A stretch of 64,000 nucleotides of DNA from a virus. Lineage: Duplodnaviria; Heunggongvirae; Uroviricota; Caudoviricetes. Below the pieces are notes generated by a model. The model made no database searches, was not told the origin of the DNA, and saw nothing but the letters and a program-made list of their open reading frames with translations. Position numbers and translations under genes: made by a program. The DNA lies in the IMG/VR virus record IMGVR_UViG_3300015615_000629, positions 32,001 through 96,000 of that record; one strand, 5' to 3'. Shown here in pieces: positions 37-43,112 of this stretch. Positions within the stretch are counted from its first letter, which is position 1; each line of letters begins with the position of its first letter.

Positions 37-171
37 TTACGGTACAGGTTTGGTTTGAAGCAGTTTTGTGGCCAACTTAGGCCCTATTTTGACAACTTTT
101 GATTTAACTTTGGGTTTCTTTGCCCATTTGCCCGCTTTCATGGCTTTTACCATTTTCTCGACGCTCAGCAT
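37..171 (-). CDS. small Lys-rich hypothetical protein (44 aa)
   Basis: Manually translated MLSVEKMVKAMKAGKWAKKPKV...KPVP*; below the ORF-track length cutoff. Confidence 0.45.
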   Translation of the reverse strand: MLSVEKMVKAMKAGKWAKKPKVKSKVVKIGPKLATKLLQTKPVP

Positions 172-190
172 GTTAATTCTCTGGTACAGG

Positions 191-409
191 TTAGAATTCT
201 GCCTTGTCCCATTGGCTTAGGCCAATCGATCCAGGTAAAACACGAACCTCTGGCGGTGTGTGCGACATCTTTGTAAAGAGTTCATTTGAGTCTGGCTTAA
301 TATTCAAACTCAAACCCATAGGTTGCACAACAATTGATGCCCTACTCACAGAGTTTGTTATAATTACTGAGCCATCGGGTAAAGATTTAATCTCAAGCAT
401 TTTTGGCAT
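191..409 (-). CDS. hypothetical protein
   Basis: ORF in the minus-strand gene run; start may be the ATG at 400; its TAA overlaps the 10-mer motif. Confidence 0.55.
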   Translation of the reverse strand: MPKMLEIKSLPDGSVIITNSVSRASIVVQPMGLSLNIKPDSNELFTKMSHTPPEVRVLPGSIGLSQWDKAEF

Positions 410-560
410 CCAAATAATCAGAAAGTTCTTTACCTTCTAAAAGTGTCAGGGATGCTATTTTATCTCCAATCTCCCTGATATGGTCTGAAAAATCGCTAGA
501 CGCTGCCGTTCCTTTTCCGTTATGCGGAGGTGGCGGGGCCATCACAACTTGAGTTTCCAC
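393..560 (-). CDS. 55-aa protein with a ribosomal protein L7/L12 N-terminal dimerisation-like segment
   Basis: GTG start overlapping the upstream TAG; translation ...SDFSDHIREIGDKIASLTLLEGKELSDYLDAKNA*. Confidence 0.6.
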   Translation of the reverse strand: METQVVMAPPPPHNGKGTAASSDFSDHIREIGDKIASLTLLEGKELSDYLDAKNA

Positions 561-838
561 TAGTTCTCCGGTACAGATTCGGCCTGTCGTATTTTCTTAT
601 CCAGAATAATCATAGATTCGGTAGTTGCGTTGCCAAGTGTTTTGTAGTGCATTACACAATGGCAAATATCGGTAGAAAAAGTGGCTTCAAATTCAATCCA
701 TAAATTTTGAGTATCTCCCCATGTTCCAATAACTTTAGCCCCTGGCGGTAGTTTATCTGCGAAATAACTTGGAGACAACTTATCGGCCGGAACAGCACAA
801 CCCGCCAACAATACACAAAACAACAACAATTTACGCAT
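560..838 (-). CDS. putative lipoprotein
   Basis: Signal peptide with lipobox MRKLLLFCVLLAG-C. Confidence 0.7.
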   Translation of the reverse strand: MRKLLLFCVLLAGCAVPADKLSPSYFADKLPPGAKVIGTWGDTQNLWIEFEATFSTDICHCVMHYKTLGNATTESMIILDKKIRQAESVPEN

Positions 839-1460
839 TGTTTAATCCAAGTTTCTTGATTTCACGAGAGTTAAGTTGACGTTTGCCCGACGCTACAACG
901 CTTTTACCATAAGGGATTTGGTAAGTGTTATAGAAGTATTTCTTGAAAAATTCGTCAAATTGACCACGTTTGCTGGCCTTGAATTCCGTAAAGGTCAATT
1001 CGTACCAAACACCATCCATCTTCCAATAAGGCGTGAATTCAACCTTTTGGAATTTGTATTTCTTTTTGTCTTTGAGTTGGTGCAAAATTCCGTTAAGAAC
1101 GTAGAATTCGGGATAACACAGAGCACGGCCAGCGGGATCGACGATCCGTTTCCCTTCACGGCGGCAATCAAGGGTCACAAAATATTCAACGTGCAAACGA
1201 AGATGATAGCCCCTTAAAGTGTGGAGGCTATTGTTGGCACAGATTTCGGAGTAAACCTTATCCCAAGGACGACCAACATTTTTGCTCAGAGCCCGCCGAA
1301 GTGGAGCCAAACGGTCATCTTGCGATTTTCGTTCGGCATCGCCCTTTGGGCGAATGGATACCTTTGTGGGCGAATCTTCATCGAAGTGACGATTCTTGGG
1401 GAAAACGTCAGCCCCTTTGCGGGTCACATCAATGATGATATCTTTCATGTCGGAACGCAT
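831..1460 (-). CDS. hypothetical protein
   Basis: 209-aa ORF with AGGAG RBS; contains LAPLRRALSKNVGRPWDKVYSEIC segment. Confidence 0.75.
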   Translation of the reverse strand: MRSDMKDIIIDVTRKGADVFPKNRHFDEDSPTKVSIRPKGDAERKSQDDRLAPLRRALSKNVGRPWDKVYSEICANNSLHTLRGYHLRLHVEYFVTLDCRREGKRIVDPAGRALCYPEFYVLNGILHQLKDKKKYKFQKVEFTPYWKMDGVWYELTFTEFKASKRGQFDEFFKKYFYNTYQIPYGKSVVASGKRQLNSREIKKLGLNNA

Positions 1461-1617
1461 ACTTTTTCTCCTTCTGCCGACTCACGGTACAGATAAAGCA
1501 GAGCGTTTCTGAGACGAAAAAAGTTAATTTTATTTAATATCAGCAATCTTAAAACAATATAAATTTACAGTCGTTCTTGTCCCAGGCTTGGTTTGTGCCT
1601 GCACAACTTAATTTTAT

Positions 1618-2034
1618 TTAAACTTTGGCTTGGGACTGTGGGACAAAAAAGTTGCTATCGTGAAAAATATCTGATTTATGCCTGCACAAAACCTCCCCTT
1701 TAAGAGCATGGTCTTTCCAAAGATTGTAATAAGTTGTAATAAAAGACCTACTAAATTTAGTTGTCCAGAACAAGTCGATAGATGCCAATAATGAATTTTC
1801 TTCATTCCAATGTGGATCAAGTTCTTTTCCTAAGCAAATGTCGCCATTTTCGGTAATATTTGGAAAAAGTATGTACTTTTCTTCTTCGCCAACCAACGCA
1901 AAAACTCTAACATTGAATATATTATCCCTATTCTTAAAACCATAGAATTTTAATGAGGGAAAATTAATTACAAAAATGTCGCCATAAACTGACACAATAG
2001 TTCTGGTTTGGGGTGGGAATTTTTTAGTAACCAT
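1618..2034 (-). CDS. Prok-E2_D / PRTRC protein B-like paralog 1
   Basis: FPSL...FPNITENGDICLG...IDLFWTTKFS. Confidence 0.55.
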   Translation of the reverse strand: MVTKKFPPQTRTIVSVYGDIFVINFPSLKFYGFKNRDNIFNVRVFALVGEEEKYILFPNITENGDICLGKELDPHWNEENSLLASIDLFWTTKFSRSFITTYYNLWKDHALKGEVLCRHKSDIFHDSNFFVPQSQAKV

Positions 2035-2715: not shown

Positions 2716-2733
2716 AGGGCTTTCAGGTACAGG

Positions 2734-3132
2734 TTAAAAGGTTAGTTTACCTTGCGGAATTTCGCCAGCAAATATAGAGTTCCAAAACCTATCAATTGAT
2801 TCTAAGGCTATTGCTTGTGGGTCTTTTCCATAAAAGTAAACCGGCCCTAAACAAACAATTCCAGTAAATGCGTCCACATTAGGAAGAAAAGGTGCTCGCC
2901 AAAGAAAAAAGTATTTTCTAAAAAGGACACAAAAGCGTTCCATTTCATAATTATCTTTTATCTTCTTAAGATAAATATCAAATTTTATCGACGGAAACTG
3001 GACATATCTTGTTCTATTATCATATAAACTATCCAAATATAAAACCGTTCGCTTCTTAGGCGGACATATTACAGACAATACATATCTATTTTTGTAGGGC
3101 GGGGAGCACCTTTTTAATTTCTTAAACTTCAT
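2734..3132 (-). CDS. Prok-E2_D-like paralog 2
   Basis: FPSI...LWRAPFLPNV...GIVCLG...IDRFWNSIFA. Confidence 0.6.
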   Translation of the reverse strand: MKFKKLKRCSPPYKNRYVLSVICPPKKRTVLYLDSLYDNRTRYVQFPSIKFDIYLKKIKDNYEMERFCVLFRKYFFLWRAPFLPNVDAFTGIVCLGPVYFYGKDPQAIALESIDRFWNSIFAGEIPQGKLTF

Positions 3133-5960: not shown

Positions 5961-6489
5961 TGGTTTTCTCCTTTAATTGTTTGACTACTTCTAAAATTAA
6001 TTCTAATTGCCATGCTTGCCTTTCGGTCATCTCAATATCTTTCAGGTCAGGAAGGTCTGGAACCTTATCTAAATCATGCAATGAGAAAAAATCTGAATAT
6101 TGGTCTGTAATGTGCTGGCTGACCTTGTCACATATTTTACCAATATCACGAGAATTTGAGATTGCAGTTTTCGGGCCGAATTTTCCAATTCTTACCCCTT
6201 CTTCAAAAAGTGCATTGATGGTTTCATAATTGACGGCAAACCCGAAATTAGCATCCACATATTCACTAACTTTGCTTTCAATTTGTTTTTCCTTGCAAGA
6301 CGCTAGTTCTTTCGCAACTTCTTTTTCTTTAAATTCACGGATAGATTCTAACTTCCGTATAGCATCCAGCAAATTTGCTGTAGGTGCCGTATCTACTAAA
6401 TCTTTGAAAAAATTCAATACGCCGAGAATTTCTTTAAGATTAGAATTGATTTCGTTTAGAACATCAGAATTCATTAGTATTTGCTCCAA
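5953..6489 (-). CDS. hypothetical protein
   Basis: 178-aa ORF. Confidence 0.6.
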   Translation of the reverse strand: MEQILMNSDVLNEINSNLKEILGVLNFFKDLVDTAPTANLLDAIRKLESIREFKEKEVAKELASCKEKQIESKVSEYVDANFGFAVNYETINALFEEGVRIGKFGPKTAISNSRDIGKICDKVSQHITDQYSDFFSLHDLDKVPDLPDLKDIEMTERQAWQLELILEVVKQLKEKTND

Positions 6490-7700
6490 TCAATTTCAGA
6501 GGATTTTGATTTCTTTTTAGATTTGCTTGGCATTTTAATTGGTTTTTCTCCAATGTCCAATGCTAAAGCATTAACACGTTCTAATACCTCTTTATCCAGA
6601 ATATTCACCCTGTTATTTTCTATCTTTAGTATGTCTCTAATATGTTCGTATTCATTATACATATCGACACCTCGGGAAATGGCGTCTTCTATCGATTTTA
6701 CCGTGGCTCCGTATGAAGCCTTGCGATATCGAGTTCGATGCTTGAGGTCAATACAATCAATTTCGCAATCGGGCGTATCGTCCGGAGCACATCTGCGAGA
6801 ATCTAGATCATGATAACTAATTCCTAAATCCCCGACAAACCATGAAAAAGGCACGCCAAAAACAGACTGCCCGCCTTGATAACTTTGGCGATAAAATTGT
6901 GAAACATCTTTAAAATCAGTAGACATAATGGTACAAGGAACGATTAACTCACGGTGAATTGTATCATCGTAGATATCTGGGTATTTTTTGGCGATGTGAT
7001 AGCAATCATCAACATACCCGCCAGTGGGGCGATGTGTATATGTAGAAACAAGCGTTAAACAATCTTTTCTCAAAAGGTATTCATCTGGTTCGTGGCCGGA
7101 TTCTTTTCTTGGTCCAATGTCTCGTCTATAGCCCGTTTGAACAATAATGTCTTTTGGCGGCCTTATCACAAGACAACGCTCTGTATTTGTATTTCGTACC
7201 AATGATTTGGCTGTGTATTCTCGAATATAATATTCGTTGCTTTCAGTACGACAACGGTTTGAATTATATGGCAGTGGCTCAACATCGGTTGGCAATAATT
7301 TAACAAATTTTCGACCAATGTCGTCACCATAGAATTCAAAATGAGATTTAAAATAATATTCATACACAATTAACCATATTTTTAGAGCCTCGTTATCATT
7401 GTGAAAATGGTTTTTCAATTTCCAGTTGCCGGCATTTAATGGGCCAAACGGATACCATTGATAAAGGATGTCGTATTCTTCTTGTTGCTTCATACATTTG
7501 GCAATTAGATACTTGGTAATATCGATGAATTTTTCCAGCACAATATTAGAGAAATATTCTGGTCTTATTGTCTCTAGAAAGAAAAGATATAACCGCAATG
7601 CATCTTTTAGATTTTTTGGGGCACCAACGTTCCTGTACTTTTCAAGATATTTCTTGACTAGATATATTTTTCTATAGGAGTCTAAACGGCTATTGCTCAT
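6474..7700 (-). CDS. hypothetical protein (408 aa) downstream of helicase
   Basis: Long ORF overlapping the helicase stop. Confidence 0.75.
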   Translation of the reverse strand: MSNSRLDSYRKIYLVKKYLEKYRNVGAPKNLKDALRLYLFFLETIRPEYFSNIVLEKFIDITKYLIAKCMKQQEEYDILYQWYPFGPLNAGNWKLKNHFHNDNEALKIWLIVYEYYFKSHFEFYGDDIGRKFVKLLPTDVEPLPYNSNRCRTESNEYYIREYTAKSLVRNTNTERCLVIRPPKDIIVQTGYRRDIGPRKESGHEPDEYLLRKDCLTLVSTYTHRPTGGYVDDCYHIAKKYPDIYDDTIHRELIVPCTIMSTDFKDVSQFYRQSYQGGQSVFGVPFSWFVGDLGISYHDLDSRRCAPDDTPDCEIDCIDLKHRTRYRKASYGATVKSIEDAISRGVDMYNEYEHIRDILKIENNRVNILDKEVLERVNALALDIGEKPIKMPSKSKKKSKSSEIDWSKY

Positions 7701-9570
7701 GGTGCCACCTTAGAATAGACCTAACCGCACGCTCTGTATCGGGTGATACAGGTTTTTTTGGTACAGGTTTAACTAGGCGATCTGACAAAAGGTTCCTAAT
7801 CGCCAGCAACTTATCCGGCGTCATTTTGCCTTCAAAAAACAAAGAACGACCAACGGCTGACTTTTCCATAATGTGATCAACGCCATGTTCATCTAATAAA
7901 ATCTTAATATCCGTTACGGGTTTTCCATTTTGGTTATTGAATAATTTACAAAGTTTTTCTAGAAACCTAATTTCTATTTGGCCTATAAGTTCGGGATATA
8001 AAGAATATCGTTCCGCGAGATTGCGACACATTTCTAATACGTTGTCTCGCGTCTTGTTTTCTAAATTCTCATATTCAAATACTAAATTTTCCAAAGCCTC
8101 TTCTCGTGGAACATTTAGGGCGTCCCATAAATAATAACGTTGTCCACCCGCAACCCCAGACGAATTAGACCTATAGAGAATAACTGGATTGAATTCATCG
8201 TCTAGTTCCAAGCACGCCATAATCAAATTGAAGCAATGTGAAAACTGTTCTCTTGAGGTTGTTCCGTCTATCTCCGGAAGACGTTCTAAATAATTGATAA
8301 TACGAACTTCGCGTTTGCCGGGGAACCGTCGCATGGCTCGACCGATAGTCTGCATGTATTCGGTCATAGAGCCATTCGGATACTTGGCATAATGTATTCT
8401 AGCACAAGAAACCCAATCTGTCCCCTCTAGTGCCATTTTGCATGTAACGACATGGCGGATTTGAATCTTTTCTGGCGAGTTTTTGGGTTCGTGACGAAGT
8501 CTTTCCATGTTGCGGTTCTGTGTTTTCTGATTCATAAGATCGATAACTTCATTCCCCTTATATTCCGTTAGGCTGGAGATAAGATTGGTATGAGCATTCG
8601 GATGATTTTTGCGATATTTTCCACCCTTCGGAGGCAAACAATACAAATGACAAGCGTCCTGGTAAGGATCGTTCTTGACGTTTGCGATAATTCTGTCGTT
8701 AGGAGTACCGCCTGGAGCGAATTCTTCAAATTCAATAATAACATTTTCCAACCCCAAAGTTGGCAAGTGTTCGTGCCAATATCTTGTATAAATATCGAAT
8801 TTGTCAAGATCCACCACAACTGGATCTTGATCTCCCCTATAGAATGTGGCGGTTGCTAATCTGATCTTAGCACTTAAAGAGTTCAGTATGATAAAATTAA
8901 CAATACCAGATAAAATATTTTGATAATTTAGATCACACTCGTCCAAGGTAACATTATTGATGTGATGAGCCTCGTCTATAATTAATACTAAGTTTTGTGT
9001 TGCTGTTTTCCTTTCCTCCTCGGATAAACCGTTCCAAACTTGGCACAACAGAGCATGAGTTGCTATAGCATTAAGGCCACTGATAATGTTATCATTTAGA
9101 TTCTTGTGGTGTGTGGTTTTTAATTGTTCTGCTGGTGCAAGCAGCCATTCCTTTAGTCTGTTTTTAGATCGAACAAAATTGTGTTTTGGTAAAATTTTCC
9201 AATCATACTCTGTTCCGTCAACATTTAGCTTAATACATTCCAAATCGTTATGTCCAAATACAAAATTATCCGCTATGTTCCGTTGCGGTGTTACAATAAG
9301 AACCTTTTGGTTGAAATTTGATGAAACGATGTCATGTATACCAAGAGCCACCAAGAGAGTGGTTTTGCCGGCACCGCATGGGGCTCTAGTTATTGTAAAC
9401 TGATTGTTCTTTTGTTGGTTGTATGCTTGTTGTTGCCAGCCATCGCCATGCGAAAGGAATTTGCAAACATTTTCAGTTTCAGTGGTGTCAATTAAGTTGT
9501 GGGCCTCCGGTTCGTAGGATTGATAATTAAAATCCGGACGAATTGTAAAATTTTGATTGGCAGCTCTCAT
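7690..9570 (-). CDS. superfamily-2 DEAH helicase/ATPase (type III Res-like), copy 1
   Basis: APCGAGKT, IIDEAHH, TATFYRGD, EGTDW, QTIGRAMR. Confidence 0.85.
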   Translation of the reverse strand: MRAANQNFTIRPDFNYQSYEPEAHNLIDTTETENVCKFLSHGDGWQQQAYNQQKNNQFTITRAPCGAGKTTLLVALGIHDIVSSNFNQKVLIVTPQRNIADNFVFGHNDLECIKLNVDGTEYDWKILPKHNFVRSKNRLKEWLLAPAEQLKTTHHKNLNDNIISGLNAIATHALLCQVWNGLSEEERKTATQNLVLIIDEAHHINNVTLDECDLNYQNILSGIVNFIILNSLSAKIRLATATFYRGDQDPVVVDLDKFDIYTRYWHEHLPTLGLENVIIEFEEFAPGGTPNDRIIANVKNDPYQDACHLYCLPPKGGKYRKNHPNAHTNLISSLTEYKGNEVIDLMNQKTQNRNMERLRHEPKNSPEKIQIRHVVTCKMALEGTDWVSCARIHYAKYPNGSMTEYMQTIGRAMRRFPGKREVRIINYLERLPEIDGTTSREQFSHCFNLIMACLELDDEFNPVILYRSNSSGVAGGQRYYLWDALNVPREEALENLVFEYENLENKTRDNVLEMCRNLAERYSLYPELIGQIEIRFLEKLCKLFNNQNGKPVTDIKILLDEHGVDHIMEKSAVGRSLFFEGKMTPDKLLAIRNLLSDRLVKPVPKKPVSPDTERAVRSILRWHHEQ

Positions 9571-11183: not shown

Positions 11184-11201
11184 GGCGAAATCAGGTACAG
11201 G

Positions 11202-11672
11202 TTAGAAAAGCCACACGAGCGGTCTTCGCTTGCCGCCTTTTAGTGATGAACAACGCTGATAAGTAATTCCCTGCCAAAAGAAATCAACGGCTTGCTTGGC
11301 TGCATCCTCCGCTGAAACATAATTATGTCTTGGGCAACTCCCCATACACACCTCATAATTAGAAGTTAAATTACGATCTTCTTTAATTAAAGACCAAGTA
11401 GAATTTAACTGATTGTTTCTCGTGCCCATTCTAAGATAATGAATATAATAAGAAACCACTCTCTCGGAGATAGGAATCTCTAATTTAGTCCAAACTGTTT
11501 TTGAAGAAATTCTTTCTTCTATTTTAGTCCAAATAACCGTCCAGGGTAATCGGCAAGTCCAAGGCTGATAACTTGTTAAAAATGTTCGTACTCTTGGCGG
11601 ATTTTGATAAACAAAGTAATGCTCAATGGTGTCTTGGCTAATTTGGTTCTCAAAATGATATGTTTTATACAA
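11202..11672 (-). CDS. Prok-E2_D-like paralog 3
   Basis: RLPW...NLTSNYEVCMG...AVDFFWQG; AGGAGG RBS. Confidence 0.5.
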   Translation of the reverse strand: MYKTYHFENQISQDTIEHYFVYQNPPRVRTFLTSYQPWTCRLPWTVIWTKIEERISSKTVWTKLEIPISERVVSYYIHYLRMGTRNNQLNSTWSLIKEDRNLTSNYEVCMGSCPRHNYVSAEDAAKQAVDFFWQGITYQRCSSLKGGKRRPLVWLF

Positions 11673-15057: not shown

Positions 15058-15764
15058 GTTTCATCCTTGAAACCAAGTAAAAAATCAACGGTTTGGTCAA
15101 TTTTGCCACAGACAAACTTGAAAAACCGCTTTTCCTTAAGCCTTCTGGCCCACTCTTTTTGGTACAGGTTGTAAATCGCCATGTTGTTCGATTGTGGAAT
15201 TCCAATTTCGTCGCAAATCCGACAACCAACTATCTCCGCTATTAACTCCCTTGTAACTTCGTCAGTCTTATATTTTAATCTTATTTCAGCCCAATGGGAT
15301 AATTCATGAAAAAATGTTGCATAATATTCATTTAACGGCACAGACGACGGTACGGGCACTGTAATGGAGTCCCCGAAGGAATGATTTGGCCAAGTTCCAA
15401 AAGGTTGTGGATAAAAATACTTTCCATTGGCACCAAAATCAAAATTATAGTTGGCTTTAGTCTTTTCTACAAAATGAAGGGCTTTTTTATAATCGGGTTC
15501 TATTTCTTTATAGCGATAGTTTACTGCTAGGGGGATTTCATCGGCGTTGAATAGTCCACGATATCTAGGAGCGGGAAAGCCAAGCGAATTCCATTGAGAT
15601 GCTGTGCCCCACCAACGGGTCTTTGATTCAGCCGATAGGGCGATGCCTCCCCAACCTTTATAGATTTTCTTTGTAATTATGTTCCTTGCCAAACCGGCAT
15701 TTCTGGGGCGTTGCCAAGGAAAACGATTTGCTTCAACTTCTGACAGTAAAAACGCGGGAATCAA
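15054..15764 (-). CDS. ArdC-like antirestriction ssDNA-binding / zincin metallopeptidase protein
   Basis: PW..., N..TKKIYKG...WWGT..QW N-domain; YYATFFHELSHW...ELIAE zincin motif. Confidence 0.75.
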   Translation of the reverse strand: MIPAFLLSEVEANRFPWQRPRNAGLARNIITKKIYKGWGGIALSAESKTRWWGTASQWNSLGFPAPRYRGLFNADEIPLAVNYRYKEIEPDYKKALHFVEKTKANYNFDFGANGKYFYPQPFGTWPNHSFGDSITVPVPSSVPLNEYYATFFHELSHWAEIRLKYKTDEVTRELIAEIVGCRICDEIGIPQSNNMAIYNLYQKEWARRLKEKRFFKFVCGKIDQTVDFLLGFKDET

Positions 15765-16305
15765 GGGAATCTTTCATTGGGGAAAATTCTGGTTCTATTA
15801 GAAAGTCGATAGATCGGTGCTGCAAAATACTATTTAAATAGTAGGCTTTTCGATCTTCTTTTTTTGGTAAGATACCTCTTTTTATCCATCTGGATAATTC
15901 GATGTAAAATTTATCACTATAAGGAGTTTCAAACTCAAACTCTGATTCCCAGAAATGGTTAATCATTTCTGACACATAGACGGGTTCGGCAAGTAGTTCT
16001 GTTGTACTTCTGAGATTCCGATGCGGCCCTGGCATACAAACAATTAACGATGTTCCAATATTAGGCAATGGCAATGGATATAATTTAATCATCCTCTCAG
16101 ATAATCTCTCATACATCCCAAATCGGTAGTCATAAGATAAGAATCTAATATTGTCGAAATTCTCTTGTTTAACCTTAATGATTAATGCGGTTTCTGGAAA
16201 CTTGAGAAAGTTAGGGTAATCCGAAAGGATAATGGTTCTGCCGTGTTCCAGAAACACCTTCACAAAAAGTAACTCTGTATTGAAGGAATTTGAATAGATT
16301 TCCAT
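15733..16305 (-). CDS. Prok-E2_D-like paralog 5
   Basis: KFPE...LYPLPLPNI...IVCMPG...MINHFWESEF. Confidence 0.55.
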   Translation of the reverse strand: MEIYSNSFNTELLFVKVFLEHGRTIILSDYPNFLKFPETALIIKVKQENFDNIRFLSYDYRFGMYERLSERMIKLYPLPLPNIGTSLIVCMPGPHRNLRSTTELLAEPVYVSEMINHFWESEFEFETPYSDKFYIELSRWIKRGILPKKEDRKAYYLNSILQHRSIDFLIEPEFSPMKDSLDSRVFTVRS

Positions 16306-17429
16306 TAGTTTAAGTCCGCCGACCCTCTAAAGTTAATCTTGGGCTTAACGGAATCTGGCATTGCATAAATGCCAATATTCTTAATCTTTCGCTTGTTTAA
16401 CTCGTCCAAACCGGCTTGAGTGATACAAAACCCCTTGCCAGAAGCAACTGTAACCAAAGGGTCGCGGTCGGGAGTGCTGAGCAACAGCGGCGGCATGACG
16501 AATTTTTGCAATTCTTCTTCTTTTACACGAACAACTGCAGTCATTCGATTCATGGAGATTGGACCTTGCTGCCCTAGAGCAACAAGAATCGCCAACCGCT
16601 GCTTGGTCATCCCAAACTCATCAATTCCATGATCTTCGGCAATGATTTTGGCAATATTTTCCCAGCGGTCGGGCTGCATTAAGTATTGTTGTCGCATTTC
16701 ATCCGCAAATGCCAACGCTTCGCGTGGAATCGTTCCAGCATACTTAGCTACCAAACCACATTCTTTTATTGACCAATCTTTGTTCTTAGATTGAACAATT
16801 TGAGCCATTTCGTAGTTGGAGTATAGAGTTAGATTAAGATGCACGAATCGAGTGACAAAGGCATCGAAAAGCAGTCCGATATCGGTAGTGGCGACAATCC
16901 ACGCACACCGAGAAAAGTTAAATTCATATCCTTTTTTGCTTACGACACGAGCATCGTTACGTTCAGTGGCTTTAAGCAAGCCTTGAACGATAGTGCTTTT
17001 AAGCAAATGAATTTCGTCAATAAAGATAATGCACGGTGGAACCTGAAAAATCATATTATCAGGAATCAGCGGCAAACCCCATTCAGCAAGAACGGTGGAG
17101 ATTACCGCAAGAATATCCTCAACCGATTTAACGGATTGAGGATGAATCTCAATGAAAGGGATTTTGAGAATATCAGCAATACGCTTAGCTAGCGTAGTTT
17201 TTCCAACAGAAGCGGGGCCAAGAAGGGCGTAATTCTGTTGGAGCCGATGATTGGGGTCTAGAAACGCCTGAAATAGGCCACGATTAAGAATACGAAGCAC
17301 AGGCCGGTTTCCGATGAAGCCGGCCCATGCCCCATACTCGTTGTCTGGATCTAAATCCAGAGCAATCAATTCATTAGGAAGAGTGTTGAAAAACAACTGT
17401 TGCGGAGCATTGTGGTTCATGCCACTCAC
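16305..17429 (-). CDS. ruvB: RuvB-like AAA+ ATPase
   Basis: GPASVGKTTLA, IFIDEIHLL, ATT..GLL....TRF, L..YS..EM..IV, GTIPREA, GIDEFG, C-terminal wHTH-like segment. Confidence 0.7.
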   Translation of the reverse strand: MSGMNHNAPQQLFFNTLPNELIALDLDPDNEYGAWAGFIGNRPVLRILNRGLFQAFLDPNHRLQQNYALLGPASVGKTTLAKRIADILKIPFIEIHPQSVKSVEDILAVISTVLAEWGLPLIPDNMIFQVPPCIIFIDEIHLLKSTIVQGLLKATERNDARVVSKKGYEFNFSRCAWIVATTDIGLLFDAFVTRFVHLNLTLYSNYEMAQIVQSKNKDWSIKECGLVAKYAGTIPREALAFADEMRQQYLMQPDRWENIAKIIAEDHGIDEFGMTKQRLAILVALGQQGPISMNRMTAVVRVKEEELQKFVMPPLLLSTPDRDPLVTVASGKGFCITQAGLDELNKRKIKNIGIYAMPDSVKPKINFRGSADLN

Positions 17430-17437
17430 GGTACAGG

Positions 17438-18385
17438 TTAGGTGCCTTGAGCGTCAAGAATCTTTTTCTTCAACCTCTCCAAGGCCACGTGGGGAGCCTC
17501 ACGGCTGTAACATTGTCCTGTGACAGGGTTTATGTTCGCCGCAGCAACCCGTGTAGCCCATCCTCTACCATCGAATAGAAAAGCATGCAAAACCTTTTCC
17601 TCCCAAGGAGTTAGGTTCGCACGGCTAATTGCATCGAGGTGTTCGGGGAACAATCCATTTTCCATAGAATCTGGATTATCCAAAAAGATTTCCTTTGGTT
17701 CTTCGTCATCATCGGCCAACGAAGAAGCATTTTTAATCTTATTGAGATTCATGGTAAGTCTGAGTCGTTGTTTTTCATTCAACTCAAGCCGATCACAAAT
17801 CTCTTCAAAGCTAAGATATGCTTCATCGGCGGCAATTCTCTGGTATTTGTATACCAATTTTGCCGCAGACGAACCAAGCGGAATCAATCTGGAACGCCAG
17901 ATATCACGGTTAATAGCGTGGTCAATGCAGTGCCAAGCGTAGGTAAGAAATTTAATTTTCTTACCTTTCTTGTTGACGCCTTTATAGCCATGCACGGCAT
18001 CCAAGAATCCAAGAACAGCCTCCTCGAAGAGGTCATTTTTGGAAATTGGAGTGTTATTCTTGTTAATGCGATACCAATGGTTGGAACGCTTGTGCAAGAG
18101 CCGTGCATAACCGGTCAAAAGTCGCCATTCAAGATTCTTGACCGCCATAAACTTCTCAACATCGGATTTTGGAATAAAATGTCCGAAGACGGTGATATCA
18201 CAAATCCGATCTTTGAGCAGTTTATATAGTTCGACACGGAATTTACGCCGACTGGGCTGCTTTTTGTTTCCCTTGATGATTTTGTGGTGTTGTTCGGCAA
18301 GGGTATTACCGACAATCAGCACTTGCATAATCTGCTTTTTGTCATCAGGGCTAATTTTTTCGTATGGTATCATTGGCTCATTCAT
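17438..18385 (-). CDS. sigma-70 family RNA polymerase sigma factor
   Basis: Region 2: DLFEEAVLGFLDAVHGY...KFLTYAWHCIDHAINR. Confidence 0.75.
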   Translation of the reverse strand: MNEPMIPYEKISPDDKKQIMQVLIVGNTLAEQHHKIIKGNKKQPSRRKFRVELYKLLKDRICDITVFGHFIPKSDVEKFMAVKNLEWRLLTGYARLLHKRSNHWYRINKNNTPISKNDLFEEAVLGFLDAVHGYKGVNKKGKKIKFLTYAWHCIDHAINRDIWRSRLIPLGSSAAKLVYKYQRIAADEAYLSFEEICDRLELNEKQRLRLTMNLNKIKNASSLADDDEEPKEIFLDNPDSMENGLFPEHLDAISRANLTPWEEKVLHAFLFDGRGWATRVAAANINPVTGQCYSREAPHVALERLKKKILDAQGT

Positions 18386-18406: not shown

Positions 18407-18778
18407 CTAGTATCTTAGTAATCGTCGGCGAATTTTCTGGTACAGGTTGGACAACTCTACCACAAAAAGGTTCGCAGGGTGTTTATTGGCCATAGCCATT
18501 GCTTCGGCATGTCCAATTAAAGCCTCTTCTCTGGTTGCGTATCTTCTTTGAAATTGGTGTAGCTCATCTTGATTGTCACAAAATATCATTGTTTCATAAA
18601 GAATAGGCACATCCCCACGAAAGGAATGGTCAATTCCCAAGAATACAGTGCTTACAAGGCGGCCATTAACTCTATTACGGGCCACCTGTCTATCTTGGCG
18701 TTCAAACCACACCCCGAATTCTTCCGAGGTTGCAGGTACAGGTTTGCCGTCTTTTTCGATCCACAAGAGATTGTTCAT
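18407..18778 (-). CDS. hypothetical phage protein
   Basis: VSTVFLGIDHSF...PILYETMIF motif. Confidence 0.65.
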   Translation of the reverse strand: MNNLLWIEKDGKPVPATSEEFGVWFERQDRQVARNRVNGRLVSTVFLGIDHSFRGDVPILYETMIFCDNQDELHQFQRRYATREEALIGHAEAMAMANKHPANLFVVELSNLYQKIRRRLLRY

Positions 18779-18806: not shown

Positions 18807-19508
18807 ATGCACAATCCCTATTCGGCTCGTGTTGACGTACAATATGGTGGCTATCCGGCAATAATCATTGCCCCGCATGGGTTTGACGACCCCAATGTGG
18901 GTTTTATGGCACAAAAAATAGCCGACAGATTAGACTGTTTTTGTGTAATTAACAATGGTTGGCAATGTTCAGCGGAGTTCGATTATACCGCACAAAAAGC
19001 AGATTGCAACTCAATCAAACATTGTCAAGACGAAGTTCTAAATTTCGAATTTTTAAAACCAATCGAACAAATGGCAGAACAATGTAAAGCAAATTTTGGT
19101 TTTTTCTATTGTCTGATTTTGTGTGGGATTTCAGATAATATTAGGCGAATAATCGACAGAAACCTAGATTTGGTAATAGGTTGGGGAATGGGCTCGCCAC
19201 CTAGTTTAAGTTGCATGAGGATCACAAAAGATTCATTTATTAGCCATTTGGAAGATTTTAAACTCACAACTTATGAGGCAGGCTCTGGAAGTCGTTATTC
19301 GGGCAGAAAATACAATTCTTTAAATCAATATGTGTCTACACAAAAAGGTATTACACAAAGCATGCAGGTGGGAATTGTGCGGCATTTAAGGAGAAATAAG
19401 GATATAGCAGAGATAACTGCCTACAAAATAGCAGAATCTTTAAAGGAAACAGTCCGAATTGGGGACAATTATTATGGTCAGGTTAATACAAGAATATGCA
19501 CCTACTGA
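18807..19508 (+). CDS. hypothetical protein, possible Zn-dependent hydrolase
   Basis: IIIAPHG motif; TAAATA 5 nt before the ATG. Confidence 0.55.
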   Translation: MHNPYSARVDVQYGGYPAIIIAPHGFDDPNVGFMAQKIADRLDCFCVINNGWQCSAEFDYTAQKADCNSIKHCQDEVLNFEFLKPIEQMAEQCKANFGFFYCLILCGISDNIRRIIDRNLDLVIGWGMGSPPSLSCMRITKDSFISHLEDFKLTTYEAGSGSRYSGRKYNSLNQYVSTQKGITQSMQVGIVRHLRRNKDIAEITAYKIAESLKETVRIGDNYYGQVNTRICTY

Positions 19509-19522: not shown

Positions 19523-19999
19523 ATGGACGACTTCTTAGCACAAATCGAGCAACAAATCCGCGATGTTCGTACAGGACACAATATCCAGCCTGTTCCTTGT
19601 CACAAAAAACACAAAGAAAATAATCTACTTTTCATTGTGGCAATCGGCCTTATGGTGGCTATTGCCATTTTTATGTATAAACACAAAAAGGATGATATTC
19701 GTAATTGGGCAGGGCAATTATTAGTTCAGAAAACAGAAGAAGTTGTCGGTAAAGATGTTACCTCTGTATTAAACGAGATTTTAGCCACTCAAGAGAAGCA
19801 CAAGAATCTACTTCAAATGGTTGGCGACAGATTAGCAGTAATGGGAGCGGTTTTGAATAACAATACTGCTGTTTCGCAGAACAAATATCCTGTTGAAGAT
19901 TACGTTTACATAAGCCGTGATTGGAAGATCAATCAAGTTCCCAAGCACTTAAATGCGGCTCCAAGAGAGCGTGGCATTATCGAACAACATTCTAAGTAA
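19523..19999 (+). CDS. single-pass membrane protein
   Basis: LLFIVAIGLMVAIAIFMY hydrophobic segment. Confidence 0.65.
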   Translation: MDDFLAQIEQQIRDVRTGHNIQPVPCHKKHKENNLLFIVAIGLMVAIAIFMYKHKKDDIRNWAGQLLVQKTEEVVGKDVTSVLNEILATQEKHKNLLQMVGDRLAVMGAVLNNNTAVSQNKYPVEDYVYISRDWKINQVPKHLNAAPRERGIIEQHSK

Positions 20000-29767: not shown

Positions 29768-30655
29768 TTAAGTAGACGATTCTTCGCCGAGGACTTTCTC
29801 GGCAACCTCAAGCAAAACACGTTGTTTGCCCGGCAAATCTTCGGTTGCCGCAAACAATTTCGACGTTAGAGCCTGTTCGGGCTCAATTACGCTCAAAATG
29901 GCTGCCAGTTGTTCAACCGAATGGGCGTAACTCTTGGCACGATCCAAAAATCCTTTTTGGACTTTGGTTTGTACCGAAGAAACCAAGCAAACCGCTTGCT
30001 CTTCCGGAGTCAGATTGTTAATCACAAACTCCATGATTTTCGTAGAAACCGCTTTTTCCTCTTCCGTGGAAGGGGTGAAAGTGTTTCCACGCCAAGAACC
30101 AACAGCCAATTCTGAGAAAGAACGAAGGCCGGAATTCGGCGTAAAATCAACTTCTTTCTCAACCAGACGCACGGCATCCGGCTTCTCAACACCAAGGTCA
30201 ACCAGAAGGTCAACCAAAGCATCGGCTGGCTCTTGGTCTTCGCCAACTTCGGGCATCTTTACCTTATACTTTTCCTTAACCGCGTAAATTGCCGAATTGT
30301 AAGGCTTGCCGCCAACTTCGGTCTTTACCGTTGGGTTTTCAAGAACACCAAACTGCCACAGCAATTCAGCGTAAAGAGCAAACAAAATGTCCTTAACAAG
30401 GGCATTGTCAGTCTCTTCTTTATCTTTGAAGAGCTTAAGCAATTCCTTTGCGGCTCGCCACTCATTAAAGACAGACGATTGCTCTTCGTCCAACTCCAAT
30501 TCTGGACGTTCTTTTTCCTTCTTTTTGGCTGGCTTTGTCGCAGCCTTACTCACCATCTTGAGGGCATCAAGAGGATTCTTGGGCTTAACGACAGCGATTG
30601 CTGGCTTTTCGGTTTCAGGGGCAGCAACAGGATTTCGAGTGGTGGCCTTAGCCAT
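29768..30655 (-). CDS. hypothetical protein
   Basis: 295 aa; AAGGA RBS; promoter upstream. Confidence 0.8.
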   Translation of the reverse strand: MAKATTRNPVAAPETEKPAIAVVKPKNPLDALKMVSKAATKPAKKKEKERPELELDEEQSSVFNEWRAAKELLKLFKDKEETDNALVKDILFALYAELLWQFGVLENPTVKTEVGGKPYNSAIYAVKEKYKVKMPEVGEDQEPADALVDLLVDLGVEKPDAVRLVEKEVDFTPNSGLRSFSELAVGSWRGNTFTPSTEEEKAVSTKIMEFVINNLTPEEQAVCLVSSVQTKVQKGFLDRAKSYAHSVEQLAAILSVIEPEQALTSKLFAATEDLPGKQRVLLEVAEKVLGEESST

Positions 30656-30721
30656 GATTTCAATTCCTTGACTTGGGTTGGGTTCCGTAACGCAGTTTAC
30701 GGTACAGGTTGGGCTCCCGTA

Positions 30722-36029: not shown

Positions 36030-36046
36030 GTTTATTCCGGTACAGG

Positions 36047-36337
36047 TTAACGAAGTTCGTTATCTTTGTTGTTAAAGAGAAGAACCGGCCCAAGTAAAAC
36101 AGGATCAAATACAGTCGCGTAAGGAAAGGTCTTAATCCATAAATCCGTAGCGTTTTGATTTACCGGTAAGTTCTTAGACTTTCCATCCTCGTCACATAAA
36201 ATGAATTGTTCAGCACTTAAATTAACCTTCTCTACATAGCCTCCAACAAGGCCCTGCAATTCCTCAAGGGTGAAGCCTTCGCCATTAAGCGGCTTTACCG
36301 TCTCAATCTCGCCGTTAGCTTTGTAAAGTGTGGCCAT
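36047..36337 (-). CDS. DUF3846-like protein
   Basis: TLEELQGLVGGYVE...DEDGK..NLPVN..AT. Confidence 0.65.
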   Translation of the reverse strand: MATLYKANGEIETVKPLNGEGFTLEELQGLVGGYVEKVNLSAEQFILCDEDGKSKNLPVNQNATDLWIKTFPYATVFDPVLLGPVLLFNNKDNELR

Positions 36338-36342: not shown

Positions 36343-36978
36343 TTACGGTACAGGTTGAAGAAGGTTGCGAATTATTGGTTCACGTAACCAATGTTGGGAA
36401 GTTTGCACATGCCCTTTTCTTACATACTTCGCCACGTTTTGAGCGTAATCACAATAATTGAAAGAGTTTACGTTTCTAACCACGTACCCCTCTTGAAGCC
36501 CAAAATCTGATTTTCCAGTCCAACAAGCCTTTACCTTGTTTTCGTCCCAAGGGCCTCGGTAAATCTCCGGTACAGATAGAAGTCCGAGAAGATTTGTCCA
36601 TTCAAGTGTTTCGTCCCAAGATAAACACTCGTTCTTATCATTGAATATTGAAAACACGTAAAAATAACTGTTTAAATTCTGGTAGTGAATAGAATGTTTG
36701 GCAAAGACATTTTCCCCGCAAACACGCCAGCCCTCGGGGATTTCGTTTTTAATTCTTTCGTATAACTCTCGAACATAAGCCCTAGAAGGGTGATAAAGAC
36801 TGTCGATTGAGCGAGCATGATGGCGGTCTTGATAGATGCTAGTATTTTCACCATCTAGTTTTTGAGAAACCACAATTTCTAATTTAGCAAAATGCTCTGT
36901 GGATTTCAACAATCTATCGTCACTAGTCGTTCCTGGCGACCAGGGCAAATGGGGGGTTCTAGGGAATTTAAAGTGCAT
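36343..36978 (-). CDS. ATP-dependent RNA ligase family protein
   Basis: KFPRTPHLPWSPG, QKLDGEN, GEN, EGYVVR, AKYVR. Confidence 0.85.
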   Translation of the reverse strand: MHFKFPRTPHLPWSPGTTSDDRLLKSTEHFAKLEIVVSQKLDGENTSIYQDRHHARSIDSLYHPSRAYVRELYERIKNEIPEGWRVCGENVFAKHSIHYQNLNSYFYVFSIFNDKNECLSWDETLEWTNLLGLLSVPEIYRGPWDENKVKACWTGKSDFGLQEGYVVRNVNSFNYCDYAQNVAKYVRKGHVQTSQHWLREPIIRNLLQPVP

Positions 36979-39052: not shown

Positions 39053-39065
39053 TTTTAAAGAAATG

Positions 39066-40316: not shown

Positions 40317-40354
40317 TCTTTGTTCCTTGTCTAATTTATCACAGCCGCTTCGCT

Positions 40355-40383: not shown

Positions 40384-40415
40384 GCCGAATTAATCTCAAG
40401 ACTCAAGATATTGCC

Positions 40416-41144
40416 TTATAAGGACTTATCTCCAGAAAGCCACTTTTGTCTGATATAGGCGTGATTATTTTTCAAATGTGGGCTAAGATCAACGGTCTTT
40501 AGGACTTCGGTTACTGTCTTGTTGCTATAGTGGTGAACTAGATTCAGCGACAAGGCATAAATCCTTTTGCCGCGACTTTTGAGCCGAAACGCCAAATCCG
40601 AATCTTCACAATACGCAAAACTCAAATTCTTAGAATCAAAAAGCCCATTTTCCAAATAAGTCTGTCTCGATAAGCACATGCACCAGCCGCAAATATAATC
40701 AGCATCATCGCCTAAAGCACCTTTATAACCCACTCCATATTCATTAAGACAACCACCAAGATAACCACAAAGCGAATAATCGGTGTTTTGCAACCAAGAT
40801 ATCAATGCTTTGTCCCAATTAGGCTTTGTTTCAGTATCAGTGTTTAAAAGAATTAAATAAGGGCTTTTGGCAATAGATGCCAGATGATTATTGGGCTTAA
40901 TAAAACCAATATTTTCTTCAGATCTGATGTAAGTTGCGTCGATACTTTTTAAATAATCTGCGGTTTCTTTATTGCTGGCGTTGTCCCAAATGTATAAGTT
41001 GTAATTACTTGTGGTGTTTTTTATGCCTTCGATGCAATTTTTCACGTAAGGAAGTTGATTGTGAACAACAATCAAAATATCCTTTTCCACTGGTTTATAC
41101 TTGGAAAGTATAGCAATTTCATATCGAATGGTATCTTGATCCAT
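40416..41144 (-). CDS. glycosyltransferase family 2
   Basis: WDNAS, ENIGF, LLNTD, YCEDSDL. Confidence 0.85.
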   Translation of the reverse strand: MDQDTIRYEIAILSKYKPVEKDILIVVHNQLPYVKNCIEGIKNTTSNYNLYIWDNASNKETADYLKSIDATYIRSEENIGFIKPNNHLASIAKSPYLILLNTDTETKPNWDKALISWLQNTDYSLCGYLGGCLNEYGVGYKGALGDDADYICGWCMCLSRQTYLENGLFDSKNLSFAYCEDSDLAFRLKSRGKRIYALSLNLVHHYSNKTVTEVLKTVDLSPHLKNNHAYIRQKWLSGDKSL

Positions 41145-41163
41145 GAACTATAAGAGTATCAAT

Positions 41164-41196
41164 AAAAAAAGCCTGCGATTTCTCGCAGGCTTTTTT
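41164..41196. terminator. bidirectional intrinsic terminator
   Basis: AAAAAAGCCTGCGA-loop-TCGCAGGCTTTTTT. Confidence 0.85.
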
Positions 41197-41218
41197 AAAT
41201 CTGATTGGAAATGTTGGA

Positions 41219-41647
41219 TTAACCAACCTTCTTCCACAGTTGATCTTCGCCTTTCGTGACCGTCTTGGCCTCGTTCTGCATCTTGTAGAGCGTCTGATAG
41301 ATGGTGTTGGACAAACCATCCTTCGAACCACGGGACTTGTAACCCGAAGTAATGACTTGACGCAAAACGTCGGCGATTTCCAAACCGGCCGGATTCTTGT
41401 CAAGAATTTCAAGAATCACCTCCTTGAGCTTCATCCGCTTGCCATCCTTGACCTTGGCCGCCTTCGGAGCAGCCGCGACCTTATTCTTGGATCCAGGCTT
41501 GCGACCACGCTTTTTGCCAGTCGGGGCGACGGCAACATGACCATTAGCGGACGAACCGCCACGAATCAGGACTTCCATCTTTCCAACCAATTCCGAACGC
41601 TCGGCATCCAATGCCTCAAGTCGTGTAGCCAAAGTGAGCAAACTCAT
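41219..41647 (-). CDS. nucleoid-associated-like DNA-binding protein (coiled coil, AT-hook-like motif, winged helix)
   Basis: KKRGRKPGSK followed by LKEVILEIL...GY.S wHTH-like domain. Confidence 0.6.
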   Translation of the reverse strand: MSLLTLATRLEALDAERSELVGKMEVLIRGGSSANGHVAVAPTGKKRGRKPGSKNKVAAAPKAAKVKDGKRMKLKEVILEILDKNPAGLEIADVLRQVITSGYKSRGSKDGLSNTIYQTLYKMQNEAKTVTKGEDQLWKKVG

Positions 41648-41708
41648 GCTCTTACCTCTCCATTTCTAAGACAATTTCTTTCTTGTGGCACTCGCCACAA
41701 CCAACATC

Positions 41709-41737
41709 ACTATACGAACGTAAAACCAGCATGTAAA
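41709..41737 (-). promoter_or_regulatory. sigma70-type promoter
   Basis: TTTACA-17-TATAGT. Confidence 0.6.
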
Positions 41738-41820
41738 GGTGCTCACATCAAATTAAATCTATCACTCAATATAAACCTTTACCGCACAACAAGTTACGTC
41801 ACTTAAATTTTTCGACATTT

Positions 41821-42369
41821 TTACGAAACTAGTCGGCCATTTACGTCTTCAATTTCCGAAATTACTTGCTCTAACTCGTTACAGCCAAAGGACTTGTATT
41901 CGATTTTATTGCGATCTAGGAACATGATAATCTCTTGGTCGATTTGTTTGGCTTGTTCGTGGGTTTCGTAGCGACCGTGTGACACATATTCGGCTGGCCT
42001 ATGTAGAAACACATTGATTGGTTTGGTTTTCCCGTTGTGAGATGATTCGTAATCGCTCAGAATGGCCTTTAGGTGAGCAGAGCTAACAAATTTGTATTTT
42101 TCTGCGTAGAAAACCTGTAGGTGCATGGGAGAATCGGTAACAATGTGCTCGACACCGGCACAAAACAACTGATCCTCTTCGTGCAGTTGCTTGGCAAACA
42201 CGTAGCATTGGTCAAAGGATTTGGGAACACGGCTAGAGTAAGCCCATTGCTTGATGTATTCCCGAACCAATTCTATGTTGTAGCCTTTTATTTTTAGTTC
42301 AGAATAGATTCTGGCCGCTATGGTGCTTTTACCACAGCCGGCACCGCCATAAAGGTTAATTCTAGCCAT
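41821..42369 (-). CDS. P-loop kinase/ATPase (NadR/AAA_28-like)
   Basis: INLYGGAGCGKST, REYIK, IVTDSP, GRYET. Confidence 0.75.
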   Translation of the reverse strand: MARINLYGGAGCGKSTIAARIYSELKIKGYNIELVREYIKQWAYSSRVPKSFDQCYVFAKQLHEEDQLFCAGVEHIVTDSPMHLQVFYAEKYKFVSSAHLKAILSDYESSHNGKTKPINVFLHRPAEYVSHGRYETHEQAKQIDQEIIMFLDRNKIEYKSFGCNELEQVISEIEDVNGRLVS

Positions 42370-42421
42370 AAAGGTTAATTCTGTGCTTTGACTTGTGGGT
42401 TCTTCCGCAAGTTGGCACAAG

Positions 42422-42703
42422 TCATATGGTAACTTCTTTTAATAAAGAAATCAATTCATCATGGTTCAAATTCCGCTCTACAACATGAAAATTTAGAAAA
42501 TCAAATTCTGAGTCGGATATTCCGCAGCGAGATGTAAGAGATATTTTATCTTCTAATTTCCAACGGCGTATAAGCCATGCGGTTGCTAAAACCAAGTTTC
42601 TAGAAGAAGTATCAAATACAGAAGGACAATTCTCACAAGATGTAATACCATCTTTTAAAGGCAACTTTAGTTTAAAGCCGCAATTGGGGCAAAAATATAT
42701 CAC
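42422..42703 (-). CDS. zinc-ribbon protein
   Basis: CPNCG...CENC. Confidence 0.6.
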   Translation of the reverse strand: MIYFCPNCGFKLKLPLKDGITSCENCPSVFDTSSRNLVLATAWLIRRWKLEDKISLTSRCGISDSEFDFLNFHVVERNLNHDELISLLKEVTI

Positions 42704-42782
42704 ACTACTATTTATGAATTACGTTATAGAGTATTTTATCCAAAAATAAATTTAATCACTATTGGTTGAATCGGAAACATTT

Positions 42783-43112
42783 TCACTTATTCAGGTACAG
42801 ATGAATTGGCAAAACTAAAGTTTTGTCCGGTTCATCTAAAATTACAGAAACCAGCCCTGGTTTGACAATTAAATGAACCATTAGATTTTTTGCTCTATTC
42901 GGCTCATTCCATTTTTGTTTAGCTTCAACATTTTGATAAACAAAAACTTCGTCATCTGTAACATGTTCGCAAAACGCTTCGGGCCAATACGATTTAACAG
43001 CCCTGATGGCTTCTTTTAAGGGCTCAGCCTCTTGGGTTGGCAGGTCATATTTGTAAAGCGGATCGGTTGGGGGCGGCGTGCAAGGCGTTGCGGGTCTGAT
43101 CGGAAGTTTCAT
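42783..43112 (-). CDS. hypothetical protein
   Basis: 109 aa; GGAG RBS. Confidence 0.6.
   Translation of the reverse strand: MKLPIRPATPCTPPPTDPLYKYDLPTQEAEPLKEAIRAVKSYWPEAFCEHVTDDEVFVYQNVEAKQKWNEPNRAKNLMVHLIVKPGLVSVILDEPDKTLVLPIHLYLNK

Follow-up and report, generated by a model that had tools for sequence, protein, structure and literature searches.

Why should a sequence of 10 nucleotides (nt) stand at gene junction after gene junction of a huge phage, always on the same strand? The sequence, AACCTGTACC, recurs in a 64,000-nt stretch of viral DNA (the window) that corresponds to bases 32001-96000 of the 572,167-bp record IMGVR_UViG_3300015615_000629. The record has a 141-bp terminal repeat and encodes a T4-type gp23 major capsid protein (Pfam Gp23, E = 8.6e-85); its source is a T4-like huge phage of 572 kb. 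The full element, WAAYCTGTACC, is broader than the 10-mer of the original prediction. We consider it probable, from the sequence, that this element is the recognition box of a phage-specific promoter class, likely read by a phage sigma factor of 315 amino acids (aa), and that it gives rise to leaderless or short-leader mRNAs.

The original prediction had listed 12 exact copies of AACCTGTACC in the window, all on the minus strand, and we recovered the same copies at the same positions, where dinucleotide shuffles expect 0.02. All 19 window copies of the shorter core CTGTACC are on the minus strand as well. The count of ATCTGTACC variants had to be raised from four to five (570, 1486, 28923, 36569, and 42794); the copy at 42794 lies outside the motif block described below and may be a chance occurrence, as simple arithmetic gives an expectation of about 2 ATCTGTACC per genome strand. 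Genome-wide, the 10-mer has 53 exact copies, 53 of 53 on the minus strand, to which the variants AATCTGTACC and TATCTGTACC add about 43 and 30. The pattern A(C/T)CTGTACC occurs 126 times on the minus strand and 3 times on the plus strand, and 121 of the 126 copies fall within genome positions 554000-572167 and 1-69000, that is, in a block of 85 kb that continues across the ends of the record. The remaining ~480 kb, which also consist mostly of minus-strand genes, are almost without copies. Because the adjoining 280 kb are nearly free of copies even though most of their genes lie on the minus strand, the motif marks a region and not merely a strand.

The enrichment persists under a codon-aware null, in which codons were permuted within genes and intergenic bases were shuffled (300 rounds): AAYCTGTACC was found 0.1 times on average (maximum 2) versus 88 observed, and CTGTACC 3.4 times (maximum 11) versus 129 observed. 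The placement of the motif relative to genes is far from random, with the ATG of an open reading frame (ORF) of at least 40 aa located exactly 9 nt past the motif in 41 copies. ORF ends and sequences bore out the earlier claims that the TAA of the upstream gene overlaps the motif at 183, 2726, 11194, 17430, and 36039 and that the copies at 41 and 36347 encode a C-terminal PVP*. The distance to the next start codon had been given as 0-11 nt and is actually 9-11 nt from motif to ATG.

If the first base of the 10-mer is numbered index 0, indices 1-9 (A, Y, CTGTACC) are invariant in 121 copies, which were selected by that very pattern; other single-base variants of the 10-mer are rare. Indices 10-14 are rich in A/T and in purines and nearly lack C (consensus TAATT, with A at index 12 in ~75%), and the step from pyrimidine (index 18) to purine (index 19) lies exactly 10 bases past the motif. 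The AAC and AAT classes of the box show no conserved sequence upstream of index -2, and the TAT class has a T-run plus an A/T-rich spacer upstream of the box. A start codon is found at index 19 in 43 copies (41 ATG and 2 GTG; ORF of at least 30 aa) and at indices 20-22 in six more. The distances from box to ATG form a spike at 9 nt (41 copies), followed by a broad cluster at 21-29 nt in which many of the leaders contain GGAGG, GGGAG, or AAGGA.

The pyrimidine-purine step is also present where no start codon could impose it. Of the 72 copies in which no start codon lies 7-12 nt past the box, 63 have a purine at index 19, 56 have a pyrimidine at index 18, and 51 have the complete step at the 9th/10th base past the box; the joint excess has p ~1e-12 when copies with identical spacers are removed. 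In these long-leader copies the purine fraction has its only peak at index 19 (0.86), right after a trough at index 18 (0.25). Bacterial transcription starts are usually marked by such a pair, with the pyrimidine at -1 and the purine at +1. Upstream, the preceding ORF ends in a TAA that extends into the box for 32 of 121 copies, and in 8 further copies its stop codon lies within 2 nt of the box; in another 7 the stop codon is the TAA of the TAATT stretch or lies one base later (the PVP* type), and 7 boxes lie wholly within the upstream ORF, whose stop overlaps the next start as ATGA. Since stop codons overlap or adjoin so many boxes, the presumed promoters are built into gene ends.

Is the signal read in DNA or in RNA? 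In the block, 18 of the 30 strong intrinsic terminators on this strand have a box 20-26 nt later. These 18 cassettes consist of a hairpin (free energy, dG, of -9.6 to -35), a T-run, 20-26 nt, and the box; only ~41 nt separate the T-run from the ATG, and within them the box and its A/T-rich flank alone are conserved. A tRNA-Tyr gene (genome 558543-558622) begins 20 nt past a copy of TATCTGTACC that itself follows a terminator; the context of this box is not translational. Many other copies are located 25-60 nt ahead of good Shine-Dalgarno sites. The original prediction had left several options side by side. Its phage sigma promoter element is favored because of the terminator adjacency, the tRNA copy, the fixed pyrimidine-purine step, the sigma gene within the block, and the (G/C)TAC motifs of relatives (see below), whereas its RNA-level options do not account for the copies that stand directly behind strong terminators, 25-60 nt ahead of good Shine-Dalgarno sites, or ahead of a tRNA. 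By inspection, AACCUGUACC has no GGAGG-like core and no complementarity to the CCUCC anti-Shine-Dalgarno tail of 16S rRNA, and separate GGAGG or AAGGA sites are present in the long leaders. A search of the window against Rfam gave no match. Two familiar promoter types were tried and rejected: a sigma-70 two-box reading, with CTGTAC as -35 or TAATTG as -10, has no workable spacing with the conserved ATG, and a sigma-54 (-24/-12) reading would place the start inside the gene.

We hypothesize that transcription starts at the purine exactly 10 nt past the box, without a conserved -35 element. The box would then occupy -19 to -10, with TG at -15/-14, TAC at -13 to -11, and its C at -11, and would be followed by the A/T-rich stretch (consensus TAATT) at -9 to -5 and the pyrimidine at -1. 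With index 19 as +1, the TG would take the place of the extended -10 TG of sigma-70 promoters. In ~40% of the copies the start purine would be the first base of the start codon, which would yield a leaderless mRNA, and a start 3 nt upstream instead would leave these copies a leader of at most 3 nt. The other copies would have leaders of 15-60 nt, many with an ordinary Shine-Dalgarno site. Promoters of this class would drive nearly every gene of the 85-kb one-strand block of small genes, in the densest part of which each small gene would form a cassette of its own (terminator hairpin, T-run plus A/T-rich spacer, box, gene). As the reader we presume the core RNA polymerase of the host in complex with a full-length sigma-70-family factor that the phage itself encodes (window 17438-18385).

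The RNA polymerase domains Rpb1_1, Rpb1_2, and Rpb2_6 were searched for in the phage and gave no match, while their controls matched; a search with PF00940 gave no match, but neither did its control. As no large RNA polymerase subunit domains were detected, the phage most likely depends on the host core polymerase. The genome has four sigma-like genes, one of which encodes a gp55-like protein of 184 aa (PHROG 'late sigma transcription factor') and two of which encode proteins of 168 aa (genome 143842-144348) and 89 aa (genome 153345-153614). The fourth, for the 315-aa sigma, lies inside the block, with a box 53 nt upstream and its own TAA as part of the next box. Its product matches PHROG 351 (sigma factor; E = 2.9e-16) and has 287 homologues in a library of 1.8 billion proteins, and a profile of 40 of them matches regions 2-3 of SigA/RpoD, reaching towards region 4 (E ~5e-14). 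The best 60 PDB matches of this profile are SigA, RpoD, RpoS, FliA, and other sigma factors, with gp36 not among them. The AlphaFold model has a pLDDT of 89 and is aligned by Foldseek over its full length with primary sigma factors. With rather more confidence than doubt, we take the 315-aa sigma family to be the most likely reader of the box.

Do relatives of this sigma factor go together with similar boxes? Both in this phage and in nearly every homologue contig, a gene for a RuvB/clamp-loader-like AAA+ ATPase of ~370 aa comes next after the sigma gene, and the two look like a conserved two-gene module. The pairing is seen at loci L238, L239, L240, L242, L244, L246, L248, and L249 and at 16305-18385 of the window. 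The link between the T4 clamp loader and gp55 provides a comparison for a possible role of the ATPase in transcription. Six other lineages with the sigma factor have a repeated same-strand motif upstream of genes, and a (G/C)TAC core is present in 6 of 6 (TAATCTGTACA, TTTAGTGTACGG, CCGTTGTACGA, TTGTACCAG, TTGACGGTACAA, and CCCTCTACAAC). Copy numbers on these short contigs are 3 for TAATCTGTACA in L237, 2 for CCGTTGTACGA in L239, 2 for TTGTACCAG in L249, 3 for CCCTCTACAAC in L247, 5 for GATTTAGTGTACGGT in L244/L245, and 4 for ATTTGACGGTACAA in L248. Of these 19 copies, 12 have a pyrimidine-purine step 10/11 nt past the core's C, compared with 1-6 at eleven other offsets (p = 5e-4), and this offset is the geometry of the box in our phage. 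The motifs of the relatives always precede a long leader, usually with a Shine-Dalgarno site.

The region 2.4 helix of the sigma factor varies widely across the family and is most alike in the two phages that share AATCTGTAC (TYAWHCID versus TYAWSCID), a suggestive sign that helix and box covary. A broader hypothesis, which we advance only tentatively and hold a little less likely than its opposite, is that this widespread huge-phage sigma family, primary-like with regions 2-4 and nearly always paired with the AAA+ ATPase, reads a single box whose (G/C)TAC core, at -14 to -11, is invariant, and that the flanks and the helix diversify by lineage into private orthogonal channels. The present phage would be the extreme case, with ~120 one-gene units, 40% of them leaderless, and a box that doubles as the preceding stop codon.

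No close relative carrying the block was found by megablast, IMG/VR k-mer scans, or searches with the PARP/WGR and gp23 proteins. Megablast of 20 kb of the window against the phage collection gave no match, and a scan of IMG/VR for AACCTGTACCTAATT yielded single matches only, among the matches listed, which we read as chance. The 18-mer AYCTGTACCTAATTGGGC matched three contigs, two of which have 15-16 copies of CTGTACC on one strand; their flanks do not fit, and we judged them unrelated. The search with the PARP/WGR protein found no relatives. The gp23-like capsid protein recovered 404 loci at 75-80% identity, of which the five largest records show no excess of CTGTACC, and in a 343-kb record among these relatives no 8-mer is enriched to a comparable degree and the starts are preceded by Shine-Dalgarno signals only. 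The gp23-relative fragments either lack the block or use another signal.

Several observations weigh against a promoter class read by the 315-aa sigma. The sigma gene lies behind its own presumed promoter, and its first expression therefore needs another route, which may be injected protein, a host sigma factor, or weak read-through. Index 16, the 7th base past the box, is also rich in purines, and the start could lie there and give 3-nt leaders; such a start could match the numbering of phiEco32, with TGTA at -12 to -9. With either index 16 or index 19 as +1, there would be no room for a ribosome-binding site in these messages. In about 7 of the 43 nine-nt spacers, the first bases are GGAG or GAGG, which could serve as Shine-Dalgarno sites on read-through transcripts, and several copies lie within ORFs without a clear target gene. 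A single pair of phages underlies the proposed link between sigma helix and box. Among the contigs of the sigma family, L240, L242, and L246 showed no repeated motif, and L238 uses a different, two-part motif, CGAACCT-N12-13-GGTCTAA. On the L238 contig (Ga0393277_0007801), which has the same sigma-AAA+ module, AACCGAACCT-N12-13-GGTCTAA occurs in 5 copies, and the two parts resemble the -35 (GAAC) and -10 (GTC) boxes of ECF-type promoters.

Could the box be a promoter that is read by the host holoenzyme or by another phage sigma-like protein (of 168 or 89 aa) instead of the 315-aa sigma? Something other than the 315-aa sigma must start the expression of its own box-bearing gene, T4 early and PeSL promoters use the host sigma-70 (PMC4122927), and two of the three copies outside the block, at 140861 and 148047, lie near other sigma genes. 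However, an invariant 8-10-mer without a -35 element is unlike housekeeping promoters, and the lineages with the 315-aa sigma keep the (G/C)TAC core while the flanks are lineage specific and the DNA-reading helix varies; we consider such a reader unlikely. Less likely again, and by our estimate improbable, is an RNA processing site at which a phage or host endoribonuclease cuts at a fixed distance and frees single-gene messages that begin at the start codon. The fixed ATG distance, the orientation on one strand, and the placement at gene junctions fit cleavage equally well, and a tRNA precursor could be processed too. Against cleavage, the 18 copies so close behind strong terminators leave no room for another promoter, the pyrimidine-purine step is typical of transcription starts, and neither a structure nor a further RNA motif accompanies the box, in line with the empty Rfam search.

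The overlap of boxes with upstream stop codons (32 of 121, with 7 more upstream ORFs ending in the ATGA overlap) and the lack of a Shine-Dalgarno site in most 9-nt spacers would suit a non-Shine-Dalgarno translation signal in the mRNA, such as a standby or re-initiation site where ribosomes would be retained after termination at the overlapping TAA. We regard this as very improbable: strong Shine-Dalgarno sites come 25-60 nt after many of the copies, a tRNA follows one copy, 18 copies stand behind terminators, the box has by inspection no complementarity to the conserved CCUCC tail, and the homologous motif of the relatives is always followed by a long leader, usually with a Shine-Dalgarno site. 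Hardly credible, finally, is a box that serves mainly as a recombination core for the shuffling of small genes and has no expression role of its own. The PeSL cassettes of T4-type phages do mediate modular shuffling (PMC2839356, PMC4122927), and a few cassettes in the present phage share 44-67 nt at 90-100% identity. Most copies, however, share only a 20-28-nt core, and the repeats therefore appear to be kept by function and not by recent duplication; recombination needs neither the strict start-codon distance nor the pyrimidine-purine step, and in PeSL the recombination role comes on top of promoter function. By analogy, recombination may be a side effect of promoter cassettes.

Table 1. Copies of the box and the sigma-ATPase gene pair in the window (positions in the window; distances run downstream from the box)
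Feature	Position	Strand	Context
AACCTGTACC	41..50	-	encodes PVP* end of upstream gene; purine A 10 nt downstream; next gene leaves the window
AACCTGTACC	183..192	-	overlaps upstream TAA; ATG 11 nt downstream
AATCTGTACC	570..579	-	GTG 9 nt downstream, opening a 55-aa ORF (393-560)
TATCTGTACC	1486..1495	-	25-nt leader with AAGGAG, then ATG of ORF 831-1460
AACCTGTACC	2726..2735	-	overlaps upstream TAA; ATG 10 nt downstream (metallophosphatase, 226 aa)
AACCTGTACC	7760..7769	-	ATG of ORF 6474-7700 59 nt downstream
AACCTGTACC	11194..11203	-	overlaps upstream TAA; ATG 10 nt downstream (GNAT acetyltransferase)
AACCTGTACC	15161..15170	-	within an ORF, without clear target gene; purine 10 nt downstream
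RuvB/clamp-loader-like AAA+ ATPase	16305..17420	-	conserved downstream neighbor of the sigma family
AACCTGTACC	17430..17439	-	overlaps TAA of sigma gene; ATG exactly 9 nt downstream (AAA+ ATPase); predicted leaderless start
Sigma-70-family factor, 315 aa, regions 2, 3, and 4	17438..18385	-	candidate reader (PHROG, profile, AlphaFold/Foldseek)
AACCTGTACC	18439..18448	-	ATG of sigma gene 53 nt downstream; AAAGGA in leader
AACCTGTACC	18735..18744	-	target start uncertain; GTG 22 nt downstream
AATCTGTACC	28923..28932	-	within an ORF; role uncertain
AACCTGTACC	30701..30710	-	45-nt leader with AAGGA, then ATG of ORF 29768-30655
AACCTGTACC	36039..36048	-	overlaps upstream TAA; ATG exactly 9 nt downstream (PARP/WGR protein, 530 aa); predicted leaderless start
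AACCTGTACC	36347..36356	-	encodes PVP* end of RNA ligase gene; ATG exactly 9 nt downstream (DUF3846 protein); predicted leaderless start
TATCTGTACC	36569..36578	-	within RNA ligase ORF; copy nearest to the block edge; role uncertain

Which genes does the box accompany? Directly behind a box in the window are the genes for the PARP/WGR protein, the GNAT acetyltransferase, the metallophosphatase, the DUF3846 protein, and the AAA+ ATPase (Table 1); an RNA ligase, an ADP-ribosylglycohydrolase, and a helicase are also encoded in the block, together with many small ORFs without a family. This content probably fits an early class of the host-takeover or anti-defense type, to judge from the kinds of genes. 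Three copies lie outside the block; one sits 9 nt ahead of an NAD-dependent DNA ligase, identified by eye from the sequence, and another is located upstream of a large tRNA array.

A second signal, TA(A/T/G)ATA, precedes 67 ATGs across the rest of the genome by 4-5 nt, and its position matches the spacing of T4 late promoters if the A of ATG is +1. Within the block it is almost confined to plus-strand islands (window ATGs 18807, 19523, 24567, and 26037). Given the separate locations of the box and TA(A/T/G)ATA, the genome therefore has at least two mutually exclusive promoter-like signals for gene classes, both at a leaderless distance. The islands span 18807-19508, 19523-19999, 24567-26024, and 26037-27629, with TA(A/T/G)ATA 5-6 nt before each ATG; none of their genes matched a Pfam or PHROG family, and they resemble late genes that have their place within the block. 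Elsewhere in the genome (69-554 kb), the 70 nt ahead of ORF starts are ~5-fold enriched in TGTGCTA(T), which is found there for 19 genes; this sequence could extend the TATATA box or belong to one more promoter class.

Some cassettes resemble one another beyond the box. Over 47-67 nt, a span that takes in the hairpin CCCGACTCCCCCGTAGAG...CCGGGGGAG, the three with the box at genome 556556, 558643, and 564049 are 90-94% identical, and a fourth, with the box at genome 557232, has 44 nt in common with the cassette at 556556. These cassettes (genome 556556-564080) are repeats of the PeSL type and could mediate recombination. ARAGORN identified 40 tRNAs in the phage, among them a 93-nt tRNA with the anticodon CTA (amber suppressor type, with a long extra arm or insert; genome 30802-30894) and one with the anticodon TCA (opal suppressor type; genome 286239-286310), which may point to stop-codon readthrough or recoding.

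What would follow if the box is a promoter of this kind? The sequence by itself would then suffice, through one short box, to place ~120 genes of this uncultivated 572-kb phage in a temporal class and to fix their true start codons. Leaderless starts on such a scale would imply that the host translates these messages efficiently or that the phage helps. The sigma/promoter pair would possibly be orthogonal to host transcription and a useful part for synthetic biology, and the seven lineages would be a natural series for the joint change of sigma specificity and promoter sequence. New here are the GTAC-core motif family and its sigma-AAA+ module.

Several phage sigma factors are well known to read promoter classes of their own, among them T4 gp55, SPO1 gp28, and phiEco32 gp36. 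T4 late promoters have TATAAATA at -13 to -6 and are read by the sigma factor gp55. Like them, the box described here would be a single-box promoter read by a phage sigma, and the TA(A/T/G)ATA class of the same genome also lies at the distance expected of a start at the A of ATG; however, the sequence, the gene set, and the type of sigma factor are all unlike those of the T4 late system, and the box and TA(A/T/G)ATA classes are spatially exclusive. The Thermus phage phiYS40 produces leaderless middle and late transcripts from promoters placed directly against the ORF, with messages that begin at AUG, and these promoters are -10-like TATA-type boxes read by the host polymerase. That phage and its host are unrelated to ours, which combines a GTAC-core box with a dedicated sigma candidate.

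The promoter recognized by phiEco32 gp36 has AATGTA centered at -11.5, where pairing ends with T-12 and melting begins with G-11, and gp36 also contacts -37/-34 (Xu et al. 2025, PMC12276001). The middle/late promoters of phiEco32 and the box have a compact TGTA core in common, and in our phage, as in phiEco32, this core would lie in the -10 region, be read by a phage sigma on the host core polymerase, and define a class apart from host-type promoters. In our phage, however, TGTA would lie at -15 to -12 if the conserved purine is the start, 3 nt further upstream, and nothing is conserved upstream of -21; the sigma candidate has 315 aa and regions 2-4 and is best matched by primary sigma factors, and the phage is T4-like and 7 times larger.

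The closest known architecture is the PeSL cassette of T4-like phages, in which a stem-loop lies directly upstream of an early promoter and is repeated around small novel genes in plastic regions, with a lineage-specific consensus (Arbiol et al. 2010, PMC2839356; Comeau et al. 2014, PMC4122927). PeSL promoters are of the two-box sigma-70-like type (-35, N17, -10) and are followed by a Shine-Dalgarno site (PMC2839356, PMC4122927). A -35/N17/-10 arrangement is not seen in the main class of the box, which shows no conservation upstream of about -21, and none of the 12 loose sigma-70-like sites on this strand in the block coincides with a cassette. Both systems place a stem-loop or terminator directly before a promoter (here a putative one) and a small, mostly unknown gene behind it, in many repeats of one orientation; the present phage differs in having one invariant 10-mer without a -35 element, a probable phage sigma as its reader, and starts that would be leaderless in ~40% of the copies.

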